A program made the translations under genes and the position numbers. Of a stretch of 64,000 nt of DNA, positions 23,504-57,994 are shown piece after piece. The notes below the pieces were generated by a model that searched no databases, was not told where the DNA came from, and worked only from the letters and a program-made list of their open reading frames with translations. The stretch is from an uncultured Actinomycetota bacterium (GTDB lineage Bacteria; Actinomycetota; Actinomycetes; Propionibacteriales; Nocardioidaceae). The stretch covers positions 27,256 to 91,255 of the forward strand of contig CAWDAF010000007.1 of the NCBI GenBank assembly GCA_963800225.1, written 5' to 3'. Numbering within the stretch: position 1 is the stretch's first letter; every line of letters starts with the position of its first letter.

Positions 23504-24022
23504 TCAGGCCCTCGGTTCGGGCTCGCGCAGCTCGGGTCGCGCCGGCTGCTCGCCGCCGCGCGCGTCGAGGTAGGACTGCTTCGGCACCATCACCTTGCGC
23601 CGGAAGACGCACACCAGGGTGCCGTCCTGGTTGTAGCCCTTGGTCTCGACGTACACCACGCCGCGGTCGTCCTTGGACTTCGACTCCCACTTGTCGAGGA
23701 CCTCGGTCTGGCCGTAGATCGTGTCGCCGTGGAAGGTCGGCGCGACGTGGCGCAGGGACTCGACCTCGAGGTTCGCGATCGCCTTGCCGGACACGTCGGG
23801 GACGCTCATCCCGAGCAGCAGCGAGTAGATGTAGTTGCCGACGACCACGTTCTTCTGGAACTGGGTGCTGGTCTCGGCGTAGTGCGCGTCCAGGTGCAGC
23901 GGGTGGTGGTTCATCGTGAGCAGGCAGAACAGGTGGTCGTCGTACTCGGTGACCGTCTTGCCGGGCCAGTGCTTGTACGTCGCACCGACCTCGAACTCCT
24001 CGTAGCTGCGACCGAACTGCAT
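23504..24022 (-). CDS. MaoC-family (R)-specific enoyl-CoA hydratase/dehydratase
   Basis: Track ORF of 172 aa. Hot-dog fold: DDHLFCLLTMNHHPLHLDAHYA...VVVGNY. Rv2499c-like. Confidence 0.85.
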   Translation of the reverse strand: MQFGRSYEEFEVGATYKHWPGKTVTEYDDHLFCLLTMNHHPLHLDAHYAETSTQFQKNVVVGNYIYSLLLGMSVPDVSGKAIANLEVESLRHVAPTFHGDTIYGQTEVLDKWESKSKDDRGVVYVETKGYNQDGTLVCVFRRKVMVPKQSYLDARGGEQPARPELREPEPRA

Positions 24023-24162: not shown

Positions 24163-24354
24163 TCAGGAGCCGCCGCCGCCGGCCTTGCGACGGTGCATCT
24201 TCGGGCCACCGGCGGCGACCTCGGAGCCGTGTGCCTTCTCCTTGGAGCCGGCCGGCTTGGCGACCCCGCGGTCGTTGCCCTTCTTGCGGTCCAGGGCCTC
24301 CCGCATCTTGGCCTTCAGGTCCTCGTTCACGGGGCTCTCGTCGTGGGCGGCCAT
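24163..24354 (-). CDS. Small Lys/Gly-rich conserved protein (possibly the DUF5302 family)
   Basis: Track ORF of 63 aa. GGAGGA RBS upstream of ATG 24354. KAKMREALDRKKG...GGPKMHRRKAGGG. The family name is from memory. Confidence 0.6.
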   Translation of the reverse strand: MAAHDESPVNEDLKAKMREALDRKKGNDRGVAKPAGSKEKAHGSEVAAGGPKMHRRKAGGGGS

Positions 24355-24485: not shown

Positions 24486-26051
24486 GTGACCGACAGGATC
24501 GACGTCAGCAGCGCGGGCCTCGTGGTTCCCCCCTCGTGGTCCGGGGCGGTGGACGTGCTTCTCGACGGTCAGCGGGTGTGGTCGTTCAACCCCGCCCGCG
24601 ACGGCAACCGGGCTTCGGGCCAAGGGGTGCAGGTGTCCTGGCCCAGGACGCTGGTGCACCACCTCGACGGTGTCGCCGACGTCGAGCTGGTCGACCACGT
24701 CGGCCGCGACGTGCTGCACGCCCAGACCGTGCGCTTCGGCACCGGCGACCAGCGGGTCAGCGTCGTCGACGCCGACGGCAACCCGCTCGCCGTCGACAAG
24801 GGCGGCCGGCTCCAGCGCGACTTCAGCAACACCGAGGACTCCGCGCGCGAGGACATCATGGACGCGCTCGAGCAGGTGCTGCGCGACCTCACCGACGCCT
24901 GTGGCCTGGACGCCTACCTGATGTACGGCTGCCTGCTCGGCGCCGTCCGCGACGGTCACATGATCGGGCACGACTCGGACGCCGACGTGGCCTACCTCAG
25001 CAAGTACCACCACCCCTTCGACATCATCCGCGAGTGCACGGCCGCCACCCGGACGATGCGGGCGCTGGGCTGGAAGGTGATGCGGATGTCCGGCGCGAAC
25101 TTCAAGGTGTGGGTGCCGCTGCCCGACGGCCGGCGCTGCGGCATCGACGTCTTCGGCTCCTTCCACATCGGCGAGCGGTTCTTCGTGACCGGGTCGCTGA
25201 CCGGGACCCTCGACCGGTCGGCGCTGCTGCCGTTCGGCACGGTCACGCTGGAGGGCCGCGAGATCGTCGCGCCCGCCCGCCCGGAGGAGGTGCTCGCCTT
25301 CACCTACGGCCCGAAGTGGCGGGTGCCCGACCCGGCCTTCCACTTCGACCACGACCCGGTCGACGTACGCCGCATGGACGGGTGGTTCCGCTCGACCCGG
25401 CGCCGGCTGCGCTTCTGGGGCGACTTCTACAAGAGCCCGGACTCGGCCCAGGTGCCGGCCGGGCCGTCACTGTTCGCCGGCTGGGTCCAGCAGCGGCTCG
25501 AGGAGCGGCAGGCCGGCCAGGCCCCGGTGCTCGACGTCGGCGCCGGCACCGGTCGGGACTCGACCTTCCTCGCCGAGCAGGGCCACCCGGTGACCGCGCT
25601 GGACTTCACCTCGCTGGGCATGCGCCGCGCCCGCGCGAGGATCCGGAAGCGCGGCCTCGACGTCACCATCAAGTTGTTCAACCTCGAGGACACCCGCACG
25701 GTGCTGCTGACCGGGGCCCGGCTGGCCCACCAGCCCGGCACCCGCGAGATCTATGCCCGTGGCCTGCTCGACACCCTCGGCGACAGCGGACGCGACAACC
25801 TGTGGCGGTTCGCCTCGATGGTGCAGCGCCGCGGCGGCGAGACCTTCCTGGAGTTCCGCACCCCGCAGTCCCGCCACGAGAGCAAGCACTTCGGCACGCA
25901 CCAGCGCAGCTACCTGCGGCCCGACACCGTCGAGCGCGAGATCGAGGCGGCCGGCGGCCACGTCGTGCACCGCGAGACCGGCCGCGACCTCGCCCCGCTC
26001 GGGGACGAGAACCCCGAGATCTGTCGACTCGTCGTGAGGTGGACGTCATGA
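24486..26051 (+). CDS. LicD-family (phospho-alcohol/nucleotidyl) transferase fused to a class I SAM-dependent methyltransferase, copy 1
   Basis: Real part of track ORF 24021..26051. GTG 24486 lies 5 nt after GGAGG. LicD-type motif AYLMYGCLLGAVRDGHMIGHDSDADVAY. SAM motif I APVLDVGAGTGRDSTFLAEQGHPVTALDF. An N-terminal domain of about 110 aa is unassigned. Confidence 0.75.
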   Translation: MTDRIDVSSAGLVVPPSWSGAVDVLLDGQRVWSFNPARDGNRASGQGVQVSWPRTLVHHLDGVADVELVDHVGRDVLHAQTVRFGTGDQRVSVVDADGNPLAVDKGGRLQRDFSNTEDSAREDIMDALEQVLRDLTDACGLDAYLMYGCLLGAVRDGHMIGHDSDADVAYLSKYHHPFDIIRECTAATRTMRALGWKVMRMSGANFKVWVPLPDGRRCGIDVFGSFHIGERFFVTGSLTGTLDRSALLPFGTVTLEGREIVAPARPEEVLAFTYGPKWRVPDPAFHFDHDPVDVRRMDGWFRSTRRRLRFWGDFYKSPDSAQVPAGPSLFAGWVQQRLEERQAGQAPVLDVGAGTGRDSTFLAEQGHPVTALDFTSLGMRRARARIRKRGLDVTIKLFNLEDTRTVLLTGARLAHQPGTREIYARGLLDTLGDSGRDNLWRFASMVQRRGGETFLEFRTPQSRHESKHFGTHQRSYLRPDTVEREIEAAGGHVVHRETGRDLAPLGDENPEICRLVVRWTS

Positions 26052-26305
26052 GCAACCCGACCAACCGCAGCAAGGTGGTCTCCCGCCTGAAGGCGCTGCG
26101 CCGCTCGCCCGAGCGGCCGCACGGCCACCTGGCCGCCCGGGTCGCGGCCCTGGAGGCCGCCGTGGAGGAGAACCGCCGGCTCAACCAGCGGCTCGCCGAC
26201 GTCGTCGACGTCGTCACCGAGGTGCTGGTGCCGGCGGCCGACCGCGACGACGAGCGGATGCGCAAGGCGCTCGCGGACCTGAACAAGACCCTCGGCAACG
26301 CCTGA
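26048..26305 (+). CDS. Small coiled-coil protein coupled to LicD-MT copy 1
   Basis: ATG 26048 forms an ATGA overlap with the upstream stop. Sequence MSNPTNRSKVVSRLKALRR...VAALEAAVEENRRLNQRLADVVDVVTEVLVPAADRDDERMRKALADL. Paralogous to 28771..29037. Confidence 0.65.
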   Translation: MSNPTNRSKVVSRLKALRRSPERPHGHLAARVAALEAAVEENRRLNQRLADVVDVVTEVLVPAADRDDERMRKALADLNKTLGNA

Positions 26306-26318
26306 GCGGTTCGCCCGG

Positions 26319-26345
26319 GGCCGGGCCTCCGAGGGCGGCCCGGCC
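26319..26345. terminator. GC-rich hairpin between convergent genes
   Basis: ggccgggcc (26319-26327) pairs with ggcccggcc (26337-26345), with a 9-nt loop. It lies between the stops at 26305 (+) and 26358 (-). Confidence 0.4.
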
Positions 26346-26357
26346 GAACGACCCGGC

Positions 26358-27557
26358 TCAGCGCAGCTTGTAGTCCTCGAGCAGCCGGCGGCCGATGATC
26401 ATCCGCTGGATGTCGGCCGTGCCCTCGCCGATCAGCAGCATCGGCGCCTCGCGGTAGAGCCGCTCGATCTCGTACTCCTTGGAGAAGCCGTAGCCGCCGT
26501 GGATCCGGAAGGAGTCCTCGACGACCTGCGAGCAGTACTCGCTGGCGAGGTACTTCGCCATGCCGGCCTCGAGGTCGTTGCGCTCACCGGCGTCCTTCTT
26601 GCGGGCGGCCCTGACCATCATCTGGTGAGCGGCCTCGACCTTGGTGGCCATCTCCGCCAGCCGGAACAGCACCGCCTGGTGCTCGGCGATCTTCTTGCCG
26701 AAGGTCTCCCGCTGCTGGGCGTAGGAGACGCCCAGCTCGAAGGCCCGGTTGGCGACCCCGCAGCCGCGGGCCGCCACGTTGACCCGGCCGACCTCGACGC
26801 CGTCCATCATCTGGTAGAAGCCCTTGCCGGGTGCGCCGCCGAGGACCTGGTCGGCACCGACCTCGAGGTTCTCCATGATCAGCTCGGTGGTGTCGACGCC
26901 CTTGTAGCCCATCTTCTCGATCTTGCCGGGGATGGTCAGGCCGTCCTTGACCTGCCCGAAGCCGGCGGGCTTCTCCACCAGGAAGGTGGTCATGTTCTTG
27001 TAGACGCTGCTCGCGCCCAGGTCGGTCTTGACCAGCACCGCCACCAGCGTGCTGGAGCCGCCGTTGGTCAGCCACATCTTCTGACCGTTGAGGGTCCAGG
27101 TCTTCTCGTCCTCCGCGAGCACCGCCTTGCTCTTGATCGCCGAGACGTCGGAGCCGCAGCCGGGCTCGGACATCGAGAAGGCGCCGCGGATCTCGCCGGC
27201 GGCCATCTTCGGCAGGTAGCGCTGCTTCTGCTCCTCGGTGCCGTGCTGCATCAGCATGTAGGCGACGATGAAGTGCGTGTTGACGATGCCCGACACGCTC
27301 ATCCAACCGCGGGCGATCTCCTCCACGACGAGCGCGTAGGTCAGCAGGGACTCGCCCAGGCCGCCGTACTCCTCGGGGATGGTCAGCCCGAAGAGGCCGA
27401 GCTCCTTCATCCCCTCGACGATGTCGGTGGGGTACTCGTCACGGTGCTCGAGCTCGGTGGCGACGGGGAGGATCTTCTCGTCCACGAACGTGCGGACGGT
27501 CTTGAGGATCTCGACCTGGATGTCGGTGAGGTCCTCGGTCTCGCAGAGGCGGCCCAT
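26358..27557 (-). CDS. Acyl-CoA dehydrogenase (FadE19-like)
   Basis: Track ORF of 399 aa with full ACAD architecture: GAFSMSEPGCGSD, WLTNGG, YREAPMLLIGEGTADIQR. Confidence 0.9.
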   Translation of the reverse strand: MGRLCETEDLTDIQVEILKTVRTFVDEKILPVATELEHRDEYPTDIVEGMKELGLFGLTIPEEYGGLGESLLTYALVVEEIARGWMSVSGIVNTHFIVAYMLMQHGTEEQKQRYLPKMAAGEIRGAFSMSEPGCGSDVSAIKSKAVLAEDEKTWTLNGQKMWLTNGGSSTLVAVLVKTDLGASSVYKNMTTFLVEKPAGFGQVKDGLTIPGKIEKMGYKGVDTTELIMENLEVGADQVLGGAPGKGFYQMMDGVEVGRVNVAARGCGVANRAFELGVSYAQQRETFGKKIAEHQAVLFRLAEMATKVEAAHQMMVRAARKKDAGERNDLEAGMAKYLASEYCSQVVEDSFRIHGGYGFSKEYEIERLYREAPMLLIGEGTADIQRMIIGRRLLEDYKLR

Positions 27558-27640
27558 GCGGGATGTCCTTCCCAGTCAGGTGAGTGCGGCACGCACGAAG
27601 GTGCGGCTCGCCTGAGTATCACCGATCGGGGCGGTGGCCG

Positions 27641-28762
27641 CTATGAACGAGACCACACTCCGCGCACCCGCTTCAGCGAGGACCTGACCGGCTCCGGCAG
27701 CCGCGACCGCCAGCCGGCGGTCCGCGGCGCGGACAGCGCGTTGTTCTGCCGGGTCAGCCGGCGGACGTCGGTCATCATCGCGGCGATCACGCCGGTGGCG
27801 GCCTCGAGCAGCTCGGCCTCGGTGACGCTGTCGGGGTGCCGGCGCCGGGGTACGTCGACCGGCGGCCGGAGGTCCGCGACGTCACCGATCACGTCGTACC
27901 CGGCTTCCGCGACCTCCTCGGCGATCCGGGTGCCGCGCGCGCACAGCTCGGCGACCCGCTCGTCGGAGGGCCAGAACTTCTCGCCGCCGCGGGGCACGAG
28001 CTTGCCCTGCGCGAGGTAGCCACGGATCCAGTTGCCCCGGTCCTGCGCCGAGCCGAAGCCCTCCAGGTCGGCGTTCACCCGGCGCAGCAGCTCGACCTCG
28101 ACGACGCCGAGGGACTCGTTCTGGCCGCCGCCCGAGGCCGCCACCGAGGCCGGGTCGACGCCGAGCAGGGTCGCGAAGCGCAGCCACAGCGTCTCGCGGG
28201 GCTCGTCCGGCCTGGGCAGCGTCAGCACGTGCACGCGCTCGCGGGGGGCGGCCGATCCCCACCGCCGCAGCACGTCGGCCAGGTCGAGGGTGCCCCAGTC
28301 CCACTCGTCGTGCGGGCGGGCCTCCTCGCGCGTCGGGTAGCCGTCGATCGGCACCGTGGAGCCGTTCTTGACGAACTCCTGCCAGCGGGCCGTGACCAGC
28401 GAGAGGGTGTCCCGGGCGGTCACCACGACATGCACCTCGGCACCCCGCAGGGCGGCCCCGGCCCGGGCCGCCTGCTCGGCGCTGGCAGCGGCGAAGAACT
28501 CGTGGCTGACCACGGCGGTGCCGGGCCAGGCGTTGATCTCGGCCACCAGGGCGTCCCAGGCGAGCGCGGCCTCGGGGCCCCGACGGTCGAGGTGCGGGTC
28601 CTCGGTGACCACGCCGCTGGCCCACAGGTGCTGGCGCACCGAGTGCCCGGGCAGCAACACCCCCTGGCGCGCGAGCTCCTCGCGGTTGTCCCACATGAGC
28701 GTCTGCAGGTACGTCGTACCGGTCTTGGGCAGACCGACGTGGAAGAAGACCGTGCGTGCCAC
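27641..28762 (-). CDS. Sulfotransferase-family protein (P-loop PAPS-binding type)
   Basis: Track ORF of 373 aa. N-terminal VFFHVGLPKTGTTYLQ (5'-PSB-like loop) and VVVTARD (3'-PB-like strand). GTG 28762 lies 8 nt after the coiled-coil ORF stop. Confidence 0.65.
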   Translation of the reverse strand: MARTVFFHVGLPKTGTTYLQTLMWDNREELARQGVLLPGHSVRQHLWASGVVTEDPHLDRRGPEAALAWDALVAEINAWPGTAVVSHEFFAAASAEQAARAGAALRGAEVHVVVTARDTLSLVTARWQEFVKNGSTVPIDGYPTREEARPHDEWDWGTLDLADVLRRWGSAAPRERVHVLTLPRPDEPRETLWLRFATLLGVDPASVAASGGGQNESLGVVEVELLRRVNADLEGFGSAQDRGNWIRGYLAQGKLVPRGGEKFWPSDERVAELCARGTRIAEEVAEAGYDVIGDVADLRPPVDVPRRRHPDSVTEAELLEAATGVIAAMMTDVRRLTRQNNALSAPRTAGWRSRLPEPVRSSLKRVRGVWSRS

Positions 28763-28770
28763 CTAGCGGC

Positions 28771-29037
28771 TCACAGGCCCTGGGAGTACTTCTCGAGCAC
28801 CGCCGCGACCCGCTGCTCGTCGCGCTGAGCGACCGGGAGCAGCAGCTCCTGCACCACGTCGGTCAGCTCGGCGAGCCGCAGGTTGAGCTGGCGGCACTCC
28901 TGGACCTCGTCCTCGAGCGAGCTGACCCGCTGCTGCAACGCCTCGACGGCGTCTGCCTGGAGCCCCGCGCGGACCATCCCGAGGGTGCGCGCGGCCTGCT
29001 TGCCGCGGCTGCGGAACCTGGACCTCACCGTTGCCAT
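28771..29037 (-). CDS. Small coiled-coil protein coupled to LicD-MT copy 2
   Basis: Track ORF 28771..29298 was trimmed to ATG 29037, which overlaps the LicD-MT2 3' end by 13 nt. VEALQQRVSSLEDEVQECRQLNLRLAELTDVVQELLLPVAQRDEQRVAAVLEKY. Paralogous to 26048..26305. Confidence 0.6.
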   Translation of the reverse strand: MATVRSRFRSRGKQAARTLGMVRAGLQADAVEALQQRVSSLEDEVQECRQLNLRLAELTDVVQELLLPVAQRDEQRVAAVLEKYSQGL

Positions 29038-30626
29038 TCGACCACCAACCGTCCGATCCGGTGCCCCGGCGAAGCGTCGGGGCTCTCTTGCTTGGGCTTC
29101 TGCAGGTGCCGGCGCGGGCGCAGGCGGTGCCGGTGCACCACGACCGCTCCCCGCGCCTCCAGCTCGTCCACGACGCGTCCCATCGCCAGGACGTGCAGGT
29201 GCTCGTCGCGGGCGAACGGGTCGTCCGCGCCCCGGCCGAGCAGGATCTCGAGGTAGAGCCGGCCACCGCCGCGCAGCATCATCTCGCAGGCCCGCCACAG
29301 GTAGCCGCGGCCGACCTTGTCGGTGGCGTCCGCGACGTGCCGGGCGGTGACCACGGTGCGGCCCGGCAGCTGCGCGATCCGCGCGCTCTCGGTCAGCACC
29401 GAGCGCAGCTCGCAGAGGTTCATCGACCGGAAGTCCAGGTCGACCTCCTCATCGGCGGCCAGGCCGGCGATCGCGGCACTGCCACGCAGCGCGTAGTCCA
29501 GGCCGATCACCGAGGCGCCCTGACGGGCCAGCCAGAGGTCGTCGACGCCCCTGCCGCAGCCGATGTCCACGACCCGCGAGGGCACGCCGCCCTCCTGGTC
29601 GCGCACCCACAGGGCGAAGTCGGACGGCTCCACCACCGGTGGCGTCGAGGGCAGCCGGGAGTAGGTGCGGTCCCAGTTCTCCCGCTTCACCCGGGTCCCC
29701 CGGAACCAGCCGTTGAGGCGCCGGTGCGTGGAGGCCGGCGTCTCGAACTTGTACGCCGGGTCGGGCACCCGCCACTGCGGGCCGTAGGTCGCGGTGAGGA
29801 ACTCGTCGGTGTTCGCGGGCGCGGGCAGCTCGCGTCCCTCGAGCGTGGTGGTGCCCAGCGGGAAGATCCACTCGTGCCGGAACGGGGTGCGGATCTCGCC
29901 CATCAGGTGCAGGTACCCGTCGGCGAGGAAGCCGCCGAACACGTCGAGGCCGCGGACCGACCCGTCCGCCTCGAGCACGTCGACCTTGAACGCGGCGCCG
30001 CTGTAGCGGGAGATCTGGTAGCCCATGTCGGCCAGCGCGCGCTGCAGCCGGAACGACTCGCGCACCACGTCGACCGGGTGGGTGTGCTCGCTGACGTAGC
30101 CGAGGTCGGCGTCGCTGTCGTGGCCGATCAGCCGACCCTCACGCACCGCGCCGAGCAGCGTGCCGTAGGCCGGGAAGGCGTCGATGCCGGCCTTCCTCAG
30201 GGCGGCGAGCACCTCCTCGATCGAGTCCAGGAGCGGCGCGACGTGCTCGGCGCTGCGGGTGTCGAAGGTCTGGGCGAGCCGCAGCGACTTGTCGATCCCC
30301 AGCGGCAGCCCGCGTTCGTTGACCACGGCGATCCGGCCGTCCCCGACGCCGAGGCGGACCTCCTCGTCGTACGCGACCGCGCCGGAGACGTGCTCGACGA
30401 GCTGGAGCCGCGTGGTGCCGTGCAGGAACCGCCGCAGCGCGGACGGCCAGGTCACGACGTACGACGACCCGGACGGGCGGCCGTCACGCTGCAGCCAGAA
30501 CGACCAGATCCGGCGGCCGTCGAAGACCACGTCGAGAACGACCTCGTCGACGCTACGGGCGGTGATCCCGTCGTCGTCGACCCGCACCCCGGAGACGTCG
30601 GTGGTCGGGTCGTCGGGGGTCAGCAC
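29025..30626 (-). CDS. LicD-family transferase fused to a class I SAM-dependent methyltransferase, copy 2
   Basis: Track ORF of 533 aa. FPAYGTLLGAVREGRLIGHDSDADLGY (LicD motif) and SRVVDIGCGRGVDDLWLARQGASVIGLDY (SAM motif I). Collinear similarity to copy 1 along the whole length. It starts 19 nt after the citE-like stop. Confidence 0.75.
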   Translation of the reverse strand: MLTPDDPTTDVSGVRVDDDGITARSVDEVVLDVVFDGRRIWSFWLQRDGRPSGSSYVVTWPSALRRFLHGTTRLQLVEHVSGAVAYDEEVRLGVGDGRIAVVNERGLPLGIDKSLRLAQTFDTRSAEHVAPLLDSIEEVLAALRKAGIDAFPAYGTLLGAVREGRLIGHDSDADLGYVSEHTHPVDVVRESFRLQRALADMGYQISRYSGAAFKVDVLEADGSVRGLDVFGGFLADGYLHLMGEIRTPFRHEWIFPLGTTTLEGRELPAPANTDEFLTATYGPQWRVPDPAYKFETPASTHRRLNGWFRGTRVKRENWDRTYSRLPSTPPVVEPSDFALWVRDQEGGVPSRVVDIGCGRGVDDLWLARQGASVIGLDYALRGSAAIAGLAADEEVDLDFRSMNLCELRSVLTESARIAQLPGRTVVTARHVADATDKVGRGYLWRACEMMLRGGGRLYLEILLGRGADDPFARDEHLHVLAMGRVVDELEARGAVVVHRHRLRPRRHLQKPKQESPDASPGHRIGRLVVEWQR

Positions 30627-30645: not shown

Positions 30646-31626
30646 TCACGCCTGCGGCGGCGACCACACGTCGCCGCGCTTCATCCCGGCTGCCCGGCCC
30701 TTGCCCGAGATCACCAGCGCCATCTTGCGGGAGGCCTCGTCGATCATCTCGTCGCCGAGCATCACCGCGCCGGTGGCACCGCCCTTCTCCGAGGTGAAGT
30801 ACTCATAGGCGTCCAGGATGTTCTCGCTGTGGTCGTAGTCCTCCTGGAGCGGGGAGAAGACCTCGTTGGCGACGTCGATCTGGCTCGGGTGCAGGGTCCA
30901 CTTGCCGTCGAAGCCCAGAGCGGCGGAGCGTCCGGCGACCCGCCTGAAGCCCTCGAGGTCCTTGATCTGCAGGTACGGCCCGTCGATCACCTGGAGGTCG
31001 TGGGCGCGGGCCGCCATCAGTAGCCGCATCAGGATGTAGTGGTAGGCGTCCCCGACGTCGTACCCGGGCGGCTGCTCGCCGACCACGAGGGACTTCATGT
31101 TGATCGAGGCCATGAAGTCGGCGGGCCCGAAGATGATCGTCTCGATCCGCGGCGACGCCGTGGCGATGTCGTCGACGTTGATCAGGCCGAGCGCGTTCTC
31201 GATCTGCGCCTCGATGCCGATCCGGCCGACCTCGTAGCCCATCGTGGTCTCGATCTGGGTGAGCAGGGTGTCGAGCGCCTTGACCTGGTCGGCGGTCTGC
31301 ACCTTCGGCAGCATGATGCAGTCGAGGTTGGCGCCGGCGCCCTCGACGACCTCGATGACGTCCTTGTAGGTCCACTGGGTCGTCCAGTCGTTGACCCGCA
31401 CGGTGCGGACCCGGTTGCCCCAGTCGCCGGTGTTCAGCACCTCGACGATGTTCTTGCGGGCGTCCGGCTTCGCGATCGGCGCCACGGAGTCCTCGATGTC
31501 GAGGAACACCTGGTCGGAGTCGAGGCCCTGCGCCTTCTCCAGGAAGCGCGGGTTGGAGCCGGGGACGGCGTGGCAGGAACGGCGGGCGCGCAGCTCGCGA
31601 GCGGCCGGGACGGACTGAGCGGACAC
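30646..31626 (-). CDS. citE: CitE/HpcH-family acyl-CoA lyase (citramalyl-/malyl-CoA lyase-like)
   Basis: Track ORF of 326 aa. GTG 31626 has a GAGGTG RBS. RSCHAVPGSNPRFLEKA...VFLDIEDSVAP...DGKWTLHPSQI. Rv2498c-like. Confidence 0.85.
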   Translation of the reverse strand: MSAQSVPAARELRARRSCHAVPGSNPRFLEKAQGLDSDQVFLDIEDSVAPIAKPDARKNIVEVLNTGDWGNRVRTVRVNDWTTQWTYKDVIEVVEGAGANLDCIMLPKVQTADQVKALDTLLTQIETTMGYEVGRIGIEAQIENALGLINVDDIATASPRIETIIFGPADFMASINMKSLVVGEQPPGYDVGDAYHYILMRLLMAARAHDLQVIDGPYLQIKDLEGFRRVAGRSAALGFDGKWTLHPSQIDVANEVFSPLQEDYDHSENILDAYEYFTSEKGGATGAVMLGDEMIDEASRKMALVISGKGRAAGMKRGDVWSPPQA

Positions 31627-31750: not shown

Positions 31751-31899
31751 CGAGTCGGCGCGAACGCACGCGTGGAGGTGGTCGAGTCGGCGCGAACGCA
31801 CGCTCGGAGGTGGTCGAGTCGGCGCGAACGCACGCGTGGAGGTGGTCGAGTCGGCGCGAACGCACGCTCGGAGGTGGTCGAGTCGGCGCGAACGCACGC
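31751..31899. repeat. Tandem array (4.7 copies, 32-bp register) of the CGAGTCGGCGCGAACGCAC repeat family, locus 1
   Basis: Copies start at 31751, 31783, 31815, 31847 and 31879. Each unit is cgagtcggcgcgaacgcacgc plus an alternating tail, gtggaggtggt or tcggaggtggt. The array is intergenic, between the DMT transporter stop and the citE start. Confidence 0.9.
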
Positions 31900-31919
31900 T
31901 TCGATGCGCCGGGCACTGC

Positions 31920-33248: not shown

Positions 33249-33458
33249 CGAGTCGGCGCGAATGCCGGCTTCACCCCCGTCGAGTCGGCGCGAATGCCGG
33301 CTTCACCCCCGTCGAGTCGGCGCGAACGCACTGTTGAGATCTGCGTTCGCGCCGACTCGGCGGCCGGATAACGTGCGTTCGCGCCGGCTCGGCGGCCGGA
33401 TAACGTGCGTTCGCGCCGGCTCGGCGGCCGGATAACGTGCGTTCGCGCCGACTCGGCG
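33249..33458. repeat. Head-to-head array of the same repeat family, locus 2 (3 forward and 4 inverted copies, 32-bp register)
   Basis: Forward cores start at 33249, 33281 and 33313. The first two are the variant cgagtcggcgcgaatgccgg. Inverted cores (tgcgttcgcgccgRctcgg) start at 33342, 33374, 33406 and 33438. The array lies between convergent genes. Confidence 0.9.
33314..33358. terminator. Perfect 17-bp hairpin formed by the central forward/inverted repeat pair
   Basis: gagtcggcgcgaacgca (33314-33330), loop ctgttgagatc, tgcgttcgcgccgactc (33342-33358). It lies between the stops at 33235 (+) and 33486 (-). Confidence 0.55.
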
Positions 33459-57088: not shown

Positions 57089-57994
57089 TCAGACCAGGCC
57101 GGCGAACAGGTCGGTCTCGAGCCCGTCCTCGTTGGTCGGACCCGGCACGCCCTTGGCCAGCCGGTAGAACTCGGTGCCCCACACCTGGTTGCCGATGTTG
57201 TTCGACAGCGCGAAGAACGGCCCGTCGACGGCGATCTGGGTGGCGTGCGCCTTCATCGCGCGGATCTTCGCGTCCGCGAAGTCGTTCGCGTCCACCACCG
57301 CGGAGAGCAGCTCGTCGGGGACCATGAACGGCGGCAGCGGGCCCTCGGGGTCCATCCCCTCGAAGGAGGTGGTGTCGCCGGCCGCCCGCAGGGCACGCAG
57401 CCCCTCGCGCATCCGGTTGACCGACATGGCGCCCCAGTAGACCTTGGCGATGTCCCACGCCGGGCCGAGCTCGGGCCGGTAGGACGGGACGGCGGCGAGG
57501 GCGGTGGCGTACGTCGCGACCCGGTGCGCCTGGATGTGGTCCGGGTGGCCGTAGCCCCCGAACTGGTCGTAGGTCACCAGCACCTGCGGGCGCACCTCGC
57601 GGATGATCTCGACGAGCAGGTCCGCGGCCTCGAGCAGGTCGGCCCTCCAGAAGGTGCCGTCCTTGACCTCCTCGCCCGCCGCGGCGTGGCCGTGCTCGTT
57701 CCACACCATGCCGGAGTCGCGGTAGTGGCCCGCGCCGCCGAGGAACCGGTGGTCGGTGACCCCGAGCTCCTTCATCGCGTTGGCGAGCTCGGTGATCCGG
57801 TGCTCGCCGAGGCGGTCCTCCTTGTCGGCGGCGACGTGCGCCAGCTCGGGGACCAGCACCTCACCCTCCTCGCCGAGGGTGCAGGTCACCAGGGTGACCT
57901 GGGTCCCGCGTGCGGCGTAGCTGGCCATCGTGGCGCCCTGACCGATCGTCTCGTCGTCGGGGTGAGCGTGCACGAGCATCAGCCGTTGGTCCAT
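57089..57994 (-). CDS. mshB: GlcNAc-Ins deacetylase MshB (LmbE family)
   Basis: Track ORF of 301 aa. LMLVHAHPDDETIG, YGHPDHIQAH, and full-length collinearity with the MshB pattern. Confidence 0.85.
   Translation of the reverse strand: MDQRLMLVHAHPDDETIGQGATMASYAARGTQVTLVTCTLGEEGEVLVPELAHVAADKEDRLGEHRITELANAMKELGVTDHRFLGGAGHYRDSGMVWNEHGHAAAGEEVKDGTFWRADLLEAADLLVEIIREVRPQVLVTYDQFGGYGHPDHIQAHRVATYATALAAVPSYRPELGPAWDIAKVYWGAMSVNRMREGLRALRAAGDTTSFEGMDPEGPLPPFMVPDELLSAVVDANDFADAKIRAMKAHATQIAVDGPFFALSNNIGNQVWGTEFYRLAKGVPGPTNEDGLETDLFAGLV

Follow-up and report, generated by a model that had tools for sequence, protein, structure and literature searches.

What function is served by a group of five genes that, in an actinobacterial genome, lies among three genes of acyl-CoA metabolism, and do the five belong together? 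The question is raised by a stretch of 64,000 nucleotides (hereafter the window) from an uncultured member of the Nocardioidaceae (GenBank assembly GCA_963800225.1, contig CAWDAF010000007.1, positions 27,256 to 91,255 of the forward strand). Two inverted genes in the window encode a LicD-type domain fused to a methyltransferase (LicD-MT), each is followed by a gene for a small protein of the family DUF6752, and one of the two sets continues into a gene for a sulfotransferase-like (ST-like) protein. The explanation to which we give a probability of roughly 0.55 is that LicD-MT, DUF6752 and the ST-like protein form a soluble cytoplasmic module that tailors a cell-envelope glycopolymer, either teichoic-acid-like or of the galactofuranan type. 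Alongside this trio the genome carries a second, older paralogous LicD-MT/DUF6752 pair.

The trio is encoded on the reverse strand by LicD-MT2 (29025-30626, 533 aa), DUF6752b (28771-29037, 88 aa by an independent gene call) and the ST-like gene (27641-28762, 373 aa), with a 13-nt overlap between the first two and 8 nt between the end of DUF6752b and the start of the third. The pair lies on the forward strand and consists of LicD-MT1 (24486-26051, 521 aa) and DUF6752a (26048-26305, 85 aa), which meet in an ATGA stop/start overlap; each LicD-MT gene is thus translationally coupled by an overlap to its DUF6752 gene. An initial annotation, made from the letters alone, had proposed these open reading frames (ORFs) and spacings, and all were recovered at or near the positions given there. 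The gene order in the ORF listing of the window matches that of genes called independently on the source contig (ENA ERZ25039495 contig_75062, 117 kb). None of the five products contains a membrane-spanning hydrophobic stretch (maximum Kyte-Doolittle 19-residue mean ≤1.27), from which a soluble, cytoplasmic state is predicted for all of them.

Both fusion proteins are built from the same three domains and are 38% identical over 515 aa (E=3e-103), as expected of the paralogues of one architecture that the initial annotation had described. In LicD-MT2 these are an N-terminal beta-rich domain (~aa 1-125, 30252-30626), a LicD/FKRP-type phosphotransferase domain (~aa 126-295, 29742-30251) and a class I S-adenosylmethionine (SAM) methyltransferase domain (~aa 318-533, 29028-29675), all on the reverse strand; in LicD-MT1 they occupy ~24486-24836, ~24837-25352 and ~25416-26048, respectively. 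Searches with hidden Markov models (HMMs), which the initial annotation had recommended, placed both proteins above the Pfam LicD gathering cutoff of 22.6 bits (23.5 bits for copy 1 and 37.1 bits for copy 2). An alignment of 42 diverse LicD-MT members (41% mean column identity) was used for profile searches and to assess conservation. The acidic metal-type residues of the LicD domain (D170-x-D172-x-D174 and D228) are invariant in this alignment, which confirms the LicD-type motif first seen by inspection, as is the C-terminal LicD motif G282/W285/P288/P290. When the 42-member profile was compared with solved structures, the best relative of the LicD domain was the catalytic domain of FKRP (residues 284-436, E=1.2e-11). 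The NCBIfam Mf1 model was also matched in part, over the motif YG.LLGA.R...HDxDxD.

The C-terminal SAM-binding motif that had likewise been proposed (VVDIGCGRGVD in LicD-MT2) corresponds to near-invariant positions of the alignment, namely G356, G358, G360 and D362 of the GxGxG motif I and the beta-2 aspartate D377. Copy 1 exceeds the cutoffs of Methyltransf_25 (32.3 versus 27 bits) and Methyltransf_11 (23.2 versus 21.2 bits) and also passes Methyltransf_31, and copy 2 falls slightly below the first two (24.3 and 20.0 bits). We retain the methyltransferase assignment for copy 2 because it is carried by profile and structure: the 42-member family profile matches a Methanosarcina methyltransferase (8gdu, E=8e-16), and Foldseek matches to class I methyltransferases reach E-values of ~1e-10 to 3e-11 with template modelling (TM) scores of ~0.7 on the target. 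These methyltransferases dominate the Foldseek list obtained with the AlphaFold2 (AF2) model of the LicD-MT2 fusion, for which the predicted local distance difference test (pLDDT) is 78.8 and the predicted TM-score (pTM) 0.50, so that its inter-domain geometry is not interpretable. The N-terminal domain of ~120 residues is predicted with high confidence to adopt a beta-rich fold and carries an invariant W60-P61; it had been described as shared and unassigned, and it indeed has no match in Pfam even at E ≤ 10. Databases label the fusion "SAM-dependent methyltransferase" or hypothetical, the LicD part often being missed by precomputed Pfam annotation.

The duplication that gave rise to the two fusion genes is old, as judged from sequence, because the paralogues are only 38% identical and the LicD-MT1/DUF6752a pair occurs in related loci across the whole identity range considered below. 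A recent inverted duplication was considered and rejected on the same protein identity and on a DNA similarity between the inverted copies of 71-76% over motif regions of ~120 nt. The small proteins encoded behind the fusions are 45% identical to each other and belong to DUF6752 (PF20537), with scores of 70.3 bits for DUF6752a and 93.1 bits for DUF6752b against a cutoff of 27. They have ~55 helix residues and no strongly hydrophobic segment. Their description as small overlapping coiled-coil ORFs holds for overlap and size, but the coiled coil itself is only plausible, given the DUF6752 match and a modest heptad signal.

Predicted fold and conserved motifs point to the 373-aa protein being sulfotransferase-like. 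An AF2 model computed from 33 orthologues, all of which are annotated as hypothetical, has a pLDDT of 87.8 and a pTM of 0.83. The top Foldseek match of this model is a bacterial sulfotransferase from Alicyclobacillus (3rnl, E=1e-4), followed by heparan sulfate 3-O-sulfotransferases (probability 1.0). In an alignment of 25 ST paralogs (25-69% identity to the window protein) E88 and R117 are invariant and K13 is near-invariant (≥90%). K13 lies within the PKTGTT of a G-x-P-K-T-G-T-T loop, in which the lysine precedes the glycine as in the 5'-phosphosulfate-binding (5'-PSB) pattern of sulfotransferases, the Walker A pattern being GxxxxGK[ST]. Arg117 follows a strand and presumably corresponds to the 3'-phosphate-binding (3'-PB) motif, and Glu88 stands at what we take to be the position of the catalytic base in heparan sulfate sulfotransferases. 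The paralog profile gave a marginal match to the same structure, 3rnl (E=0.029), which aligns the loop and the R117 region, the two putative binding regions for 3'-phosphoadenosine-5'-phosphosulfate (PAPS). A PK(T/S)GT(T/S) loop, an arginine after a strand and a glutamate are thus features common to the 373-aa protein and its best structural matches, and sulfation by this protein appears probable on the basis of the model and the motifs.

Whether the genes form a unit can be judged from their relatives. A scan of one genome per GTDB species, with patterns taken from an alignment of closer relatives, gave at least 336 relatives, the best 80 of which all belong to the Nocardioidaceae and show 51-80% identity to LicD-MT2. 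The 80 loci were retrieved by means of the cassette itself, so the following counts describe loci that contain it and not its frequency among Nocardioidaceae at large; they rest on tblastn, as the script used to call genes in these loci, which is based on the GC content at third codon positions, makes some errors. Among 76 species loci with enough downstream sequence, DUF6752 directly follows the LicD-MT2 ortholog in 75 and an ST gene lies downstream of it in all 76. Comparison across related genomes had been named in the initial annotation as a check, and it shows that the cassette genes do co-occur, in the order LicD-MT, DUF6752, ST in 75-76 of the 76 loci. Of 60 loci for which 9 kb downstream was available, 20 have an inverted LicD-MT1/DUF6752a pair downstream of fadE. 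Cultured strains that carry the trio include Nocardioides iriomotensis NBRC 105384 (L018), N. halotolerans DSM 19273 (L067), Marmoricola endophyticus CGMCC 1.16067 (L040) and Marmoricola sp. Leaf446 (L090). The family extends well beyond these loci: 2933 representative proteins were found at E ≤ 1e-3 and 336 at E ≤ 1e-30 (50%-identity clusters), mostly full-length at ~500-540 aa, and the representatives include members from Sciscionella, Leifsonia, Paramicrobacterium and Cellulosimicrobium. One family member (P0274) has an N-terminal coiled-coil extension.

Components of the cassette are also found fused to one another. ST is joined to LicD-MT in an 860-aa protein present on two contigs (P0305; L089 1090-3672), where a gene of the NTP_transf_3 family precedes the fusion and DUF6752 and a second ST follow it. 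LicD-MT is joined to DUF6752 in two proteins of 609 and 640 aa (P0252 and P0306), and ST is joined to DUF6752 in a 433-aa protein of the cultured Marmoricola sp. Leaf446 (L090 11632-12933). Some of these fusions could be frameshift artefacts. Because natural fusions occur in three independent permutations, they suggest that LicD-MT, DUF6752 and ST work together, perhaps as a complex. Taken with the conservation of order of nearly 100% in 76 Nocardioidaceae species, they support, at the level of sequence, a functional link among the five genes.

The gene contexts of more distant relatives indicate the kind of pathway in which such a module may act. Four of six contexts outside the Nocardioidaceae genome set (L083-L088) are glycan clusters. 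In Cellulosimicrobium cellulans (L084) the LicD-MT/DUF6752 pair is flanked on one side by a GlfT2-type galactofuranosyltransferase and an ABC-2 transporter, and on the other by a glycosyltransferase of family 2 (GT2), an NTP_transf_3 protein 63% identical to the Nocardioidaceae one, a phosphomannomutase and dTDP-rhamnose genes. In Paramicrobacterium humi (L085) it follows UDP-galactopyranose mutase (Glf), with a GT2-Glyphos_transf (TagF-like) gene, an IspD-SDR fusion, GlfT2 and ABC-2 genes nearby. The pair of Leifsonia sp. Leaf264 (L088) is flanked by Wzy_C, IspD-SDR, a 1248-aa GT2-Glyphos_transf protein and pyruvyl transferases, with Glf and GlfT2 near, and a metagenomic locus (L087) combines four ST paralogs, LicD-MT, DUF6752, two pyruvyl transferases, two phospholipase D (PLD) proteins, ABC-2, GlfT2 and Glf. 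IspD-SDR thus adjoins LicD-MT/DUF6752 in two Microbacteriaceae (L085 and L088), and such fusions resemble cytidine diphosphate (CDP)-ribitol synthases of the TarI/TarJ or Bcs1 type. NTP_transf_3 immediately precedes the LicD-MT2 ortholog in 17 Nocardioidaceae loci, as it does the ST::LicD-MT fusion of L089; it matches CTP:inositol-1-phosphate cytidylyltransferase weakly (E=0.008) and NCBIfam models below threshold.

LicD-domain enzymes transfer phospho-alcohols from CDP conjugates and are paired with ISPD or TarI (PMC4873967), the combination of ISPD with FKRP or fukutin being the textbook case (PMC4873967; PMC6965139). In the scheme that we infer, from donor and acceptor to the sequence of reactions, sulfation and the part played by DUF6752, a CDP-activated alcohol would be made elsewhere, in relatives by the adjacent NTP_transf_3 or IspD-SDR protein, which would supply a CDP-polyol such as CDP-ribitol. 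The LicD/FKRP-type domain would then transfer the phospho-alcohol through its DxDxD metal site onto a sugar hydroxyl of a lipid-linked polymer, and the fused SAM methyltransferase would methylate the installed group or a neighbouring position. The ST-like protein would add sulfate from PAPS, DUF6752 may hold the enzymes together or tether them, and the finished polymer would be exported, in relatives presumably by the ABC-2 transporter. A polyol-phosphate or similar group, installed by LicD on a lipid-linked wall glycopolymer before its export, would be the most economical reading of the module. The initial annotation had left the choice between a wall glycopolymer, a glycolipid and a small molecule; a cytoplasmic role in wall-glycopolymer synthesis is favoured because the proteins have no predicted transmembrane segments, which fits the use of cytoplasmic donors, and because distant relatives lie inside clusters with GlfT2, Glf, ABC-2 and TagF-like genes, substrate and chemistry remaining at the level of the scheme above.

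The literature searched yielded no characterised protein with such an architecture or such a set of genes, in keeping with what the initial annotation had stated, and the comparison with known systems is therefore one of parts. With FKRP/fukutin-ISPD and bacterial TarI/TarJ-LicD systems the fusion shares a LicD-type catalytic domain with an acidic metal motif, and with FKRP itself also a non-catalytic N-terminal domain ahead of the catalytic one. The presence of an IspD-SDR gene beside LicD-MT in the two Microbacteriaceae, read as CDP-ribitol-synthase-like by analogy to TarI/TarJ, recalls the ISPD-FKRP pairing (PMC4873967, PMC6965139). Unlike FKRP, LicD-MT is predicted to be a soluble cytoplasmic bacterial protein, has a C-terminal SAM methyltransferase domain and comes with an obligatory DUF6752 partner and, in Nocardioidaceae, an ST-like one; IspD is absent from this window. 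The phosphocholine transferases LicD1 and LicD2 of Streptococcus pneumoniae and Mf1 of Mycoplasma fermentans share Pfam LicD membership with the fusion. LicD-MT differs from them in its extra N-terminal and methyltransferase domains and in its neighbourhood, where genes for a choline kinase, a choline transporter or LicC were not identified, and scores lie far under the Mf1 equivalog cutoff (37 versus 225 bits).

Several observations weigh against a wall-polymer module that transfers, methylates and sulfates. The Pfam LicD (PF04991) matches are confined to the motifs at the N- and C-terminal ends of the model, and the closest methyltransferase relatives are generic small-molecule enzymes (TehB/TPMT/UbiG-like), so that the methyl acceptor cannot be read from homology. 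Glycan genes are absent from the vicinity of LicD-MT in two contexts, Sciscionella L083 (with the pair) and L086 (with LicD-MT and no DUF6752 call). The 64-kb window contains no cytidylyltransferase, glycosyltransferase, polymerase or exporter, and the rest of the pathway is therefore expected elsewhere in the genome; the lack of a LicC-like cytidylyltransferase and of glycosyltransferases had been noted at the outset, and is now refined by the NTP_transf_3 and IspD-SDR genes beside relatives. Searches of the literature found no experimental report that Nocardioidaceae make polyol-phosphate wall polymers bearing sulfate or methyl groups. The 373-aa protein has no Pfam or NCBIfam match, even at E ≤ 10 against Pfam, and the TM-scores of its Foldseek matches are moderate (0.39-0.57); it lies outside every curated sulfotransferase HMM family, and an extra C-terminal helical region of ~120 aa sets it apart from heparan sulfate 3-O-sulfotransferases and 3RNL. 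Its initial description as a P-loop sulfotransferase was thus borne out for location, 8-nt gap, predicted fold and motifs, but not for membership in a curated family.

A rival reading is that the 373-aa protein shares the fold class but is a nucleotide-binding enzyme of a different kind, for example a kinase-like one, or a non-catalytic scaffold. The absence of HMM matches would fit this, as would the failure of the orthologue profile to match any PDB sequence and the zeta toxins and other P-loop kinases interspersed at similar E-values among the Foldseek matches. The loop, however, follows the 5'-PSB and not the Walker A pattern, Arg117 and Glu88 are, by comparison of motifs, placed like the 3'-PB residue and the catalytic base, profile and structure searches converge on a single bacterial sulfotransferase, and three related loci encode a sulfatase-family protein whose N-terminus is signal-peptide-like; we therefore consider a kinase-like or scaffold role distinctly doubtful. 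Another possibility concerns where on the chain the module would act. In WbdD and the Klebsiella O7 terminator a kinase and a methyltransferase are mounted on a coiled-coil ruler, and terminators of this type cap the chain with a methyl phosphate while the coiled coil measures its length in ABC-transporter-dependent O-antigens (PMC3482155; PMC11231755). LicD-MT could be a Gram-positive analogue that caps an ABC-transporter-dependent polymer by placing a methylated phospho-group at its non-reducing end, with DUF6752 as coiled-coil spacer or recruiter; this would be a special case of the wall-polymer explanation and not its opposite. A phosphate-installing module and a SAM methyltransferase occur in one polypeptide with a coupled helical partner, as in WbdD of E. 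coli O9a/K. pneumoniae O3 and the K. pneumoniae O7 terminator, WbdD is among the PDB matches of the methyltransferase domain, relatives adjoin GlfT2-type polymerases and ABC-2 transporters in clusters for ABC-transporter-dependent glycans, and one fusion protein per cluster would fit a terminal, once-per-chain event. The installer, however, is a LicD phospho-alcohol transferase in place of a kinase, and the match to WbdD is generic methyltransferase-fold similarity. The long ruler with a membrane anchor and the cap-binding ABC transporter of WbdD-type systems were found neither in DUF6752, a short separate protein in which no amphipathic membrane anchor was identified, nor in the ABC_tran proteins of L084 and L087, which at 250 and 244 aa are without a C-terminal carbohydrate-binding module. 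Up to four ST paralogs per locus also suggest decoration of repeat units, and a terminator function is, on this balance, unlikely though well worth keeping in mind.

The remaining alternatives turn on the neighbouring genes, which lie outside the module and are all on the reverse strand: citE (30646-31626), encoding a CitE-like HpcH/HpaI acyl-CoA lyase, ends 19 nt before LicD-MT2 begins; fadE (26358-27557), an acyl-CoA dehydrogenase gene, lies between the two cassettes; and maoC (23504-24022), encoding a MaoC-type hydratase, lies beyond LicD-MT1. The families proposed for these neighbours were verified by HMM (HpcH_HpaI for the lyase, MaoC/MC_hydratase for the hydratase). The LicD-MT2 ortholog has citE no more than 2.5 kb upstream in 17 of the 18 related loci at ≥65% identity and in none of the 53 below that; in many more distant loci the position of citE is held by NTP_transf_3, endonuclease/exonuclease/phosphatase (EEP)-family, PLD-like or extra ST genes. 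The gene fadE directly follows ST on the same strand in 32 of the 60 loci and lies within 10 kb in 52, across all identity bins. The proposed insertion of the cassette into a conserved citE-fadE-maoC operon thus could not be upheld, since adjacency to citE is confined to the closest clade, the link to fadE being wider. The 19-nt gap is compatible with co-transcription, the junction between citE and LicD-MT2 is not conserved among relatives, and a promoter and terminator scan gave sites no commoner than in shuffled sequence. In Marmoricola sp. Leaf446, tblastn recovers fadE in two pieces (aa 1-334 and 349-399; L090 15396-16549) that gene calling passed over; fadE may be a frameshifted pseudogene there, the adjoining cassette being intact.

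A module that modifies a lipid or a small acyl-derived metabolite tied to citE, fadE and maoC would explain the linkage to fadE and, in this genome, the proximity of citE; the nearest structural relatives of the methyltransferase act on small molecules, and the LicD relative Mf1 acts on a glycolipid (PMC11982090). None of the three genes, however, occurs in the six contexts outside the Nocardioidaceae genome set, four of which are glycan clusters, citE adjacency is limited to one clade, and the citE, fadE and maoC proteins are 75-97% identical across loci, as housekeeping genes are, with the cassette diverging down to ~50%. We consider such a role improbable because the linkage to acyl-CoA genes vanishes outside the Nocardioidaceae. 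It would also be conceivable that five genes without a shared function landed in a citE-fadE-maoC operon, as a recent genomic island or by chance. The surrounding region varies among relatives, and the cassette splits genes of the families that we take to be contiguous in M. tuberculosis (CitE lyase, MaoC hydratase and FadE19, Rv2498c-Rv2500c). The flanking genes of the window belong to the same families, with RipC- and RipB-type models among the better, sub-threshold NCBIfam matches, but the gene order differs, citE, fadE and maoC are not contiguous here, and most Nocardioidaceae examined have citE away from fadE and maoC. Against a recent arrival or chance stand the order of the trio, kept in 75-76 of 76 species, the age of the duplication, the fusion proteins that join components, and base composition: the cassette has a GC content of 0.72-0.75, like the rest of the window, and it is citE, fadE and maoC, at ~0.67, that are the outliers. 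No tRNA genes were found in the window, no integrase or transposase domain was annotated in the gene calls between maoC and citE, no Rfam elements were found between 20 and 35 kb along the window, and the only inverted repeats between maoC and citE are the residual similarity of the two LicD-MT paralogues. An island or chance adjacency is accordingly very improbable, and the place of the cassette beside citE, fadE and maoC is inherited Nocardioidaceae synteny that carries no functional link. A defence system was considered as well and rejected, PADLOC having returned only a generic methyltransferase-domain match to mad2 and a weak coiled-coil match.

The region from an MgtE/Mrp/TatA block to maoC varies throughout the family and is most aptly seen as a hotspot for envelope-related genes; besides the trio it holds, depending on the species, further ST paralogs, NTP_transf_3 (17 loci), GT2, DUF2304 and a DUF6077 membrane protein. 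PLD-like (PLDc_2) and EEP-family proteins, whose representatives have signal-peptide-like hydrophobic N-termini, recur beside the cassette, and a few hotspot loci encode an LtaS-like sulfatase-fold membrane protein with a hydrophobic N-terminal region or a sulfatase-family protein with a signal-peptide-like N-terminus. Such PLD, EEP and sulfatase neighbours lie between MgtE and fadE/maoC in the Nocardioidaceae loci L031, L041, L049-L054, L062, L067-L071, L080-L081 and others, and suggest extracellular trimming of phosphodiester- or sulfate-linked groups. The initial inventory of the window locus contained the five cassette genes correctly but overlooked a sixth small gene between maoC and LicD-MT1 (24163-24354, reverse strand). 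It encodes a 63-aa DUF5302 protein rich in lysine and glycine, accompanies maoC in most related loci, including those that lack LicD-MT1, and is probably unrelated to the cassette.

The outer ORFs of the window appear housekeeping-like by eye and include no glycopolymer polymerase or exporter, no family-library search having been made of them; one on the reverse strand (57089-57994), beginning MDQRLMLVHAHPDDETIGQG, resembles by eye a deacetylase of the PIG-L/MshB type. Three short tandem arrays (31751-31900, 33249-33326 and 33342-33458) repeat with a period of 32 nt (2.4-4.7 copies, 94-100% matches) and have the core CGAGTCGGCGCGAA[C/T]GC in common, the third in reverse complement. They sit in the intergenic gaps between citE and an EamA-type transporter gene and between a 134-aa ORF and a PhzF-like gene. 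A CRISPR array was rejected as an explanation, the 32-nt period being too short, and the arrays may represent a dispersed intergenic repeat family.

A bolder form of the wall-polymer explanation, which we put forward tentatively and regard as rather unlikely in its entirety, is that LicD-MT, DUF6752 and ST constitute one machine that builds a methylated, sulfated polyol-phosphate epitope on an actinobacterial wall glycopolymer, that ST represents a new sulfotransferase family undetected by current HMM libraries, and that LicD-MT with its helical partner is a Gram-positive counterpart of the WbdD-type cap and ruler. A sulfated teichoic-acid-like wall polymer would, to our knowledge, be the first in Gram-positive bacteria. 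The superfamilies of the catalytic domains are known ones (LicD/FKRP, class I methyltransferase and the sulfotransferase fold), the combination of these domains is uncharacterised, and two families, the ST-like proteins and the N-terminal domain, fall outside curated models. A large and poorly labelled family thereby gains a fixed three-component cassette for phospho-alcohol transfer, methylation and probable sulfation, the likely target of which is the cell-wall glycopolymers of soil and plant-associated actinobacteria. If the proposal is true, sulfation would be a new charge modification of Gram-positive cell walls and could bear on phage adsorption, ion binding, and plant or host recognition.

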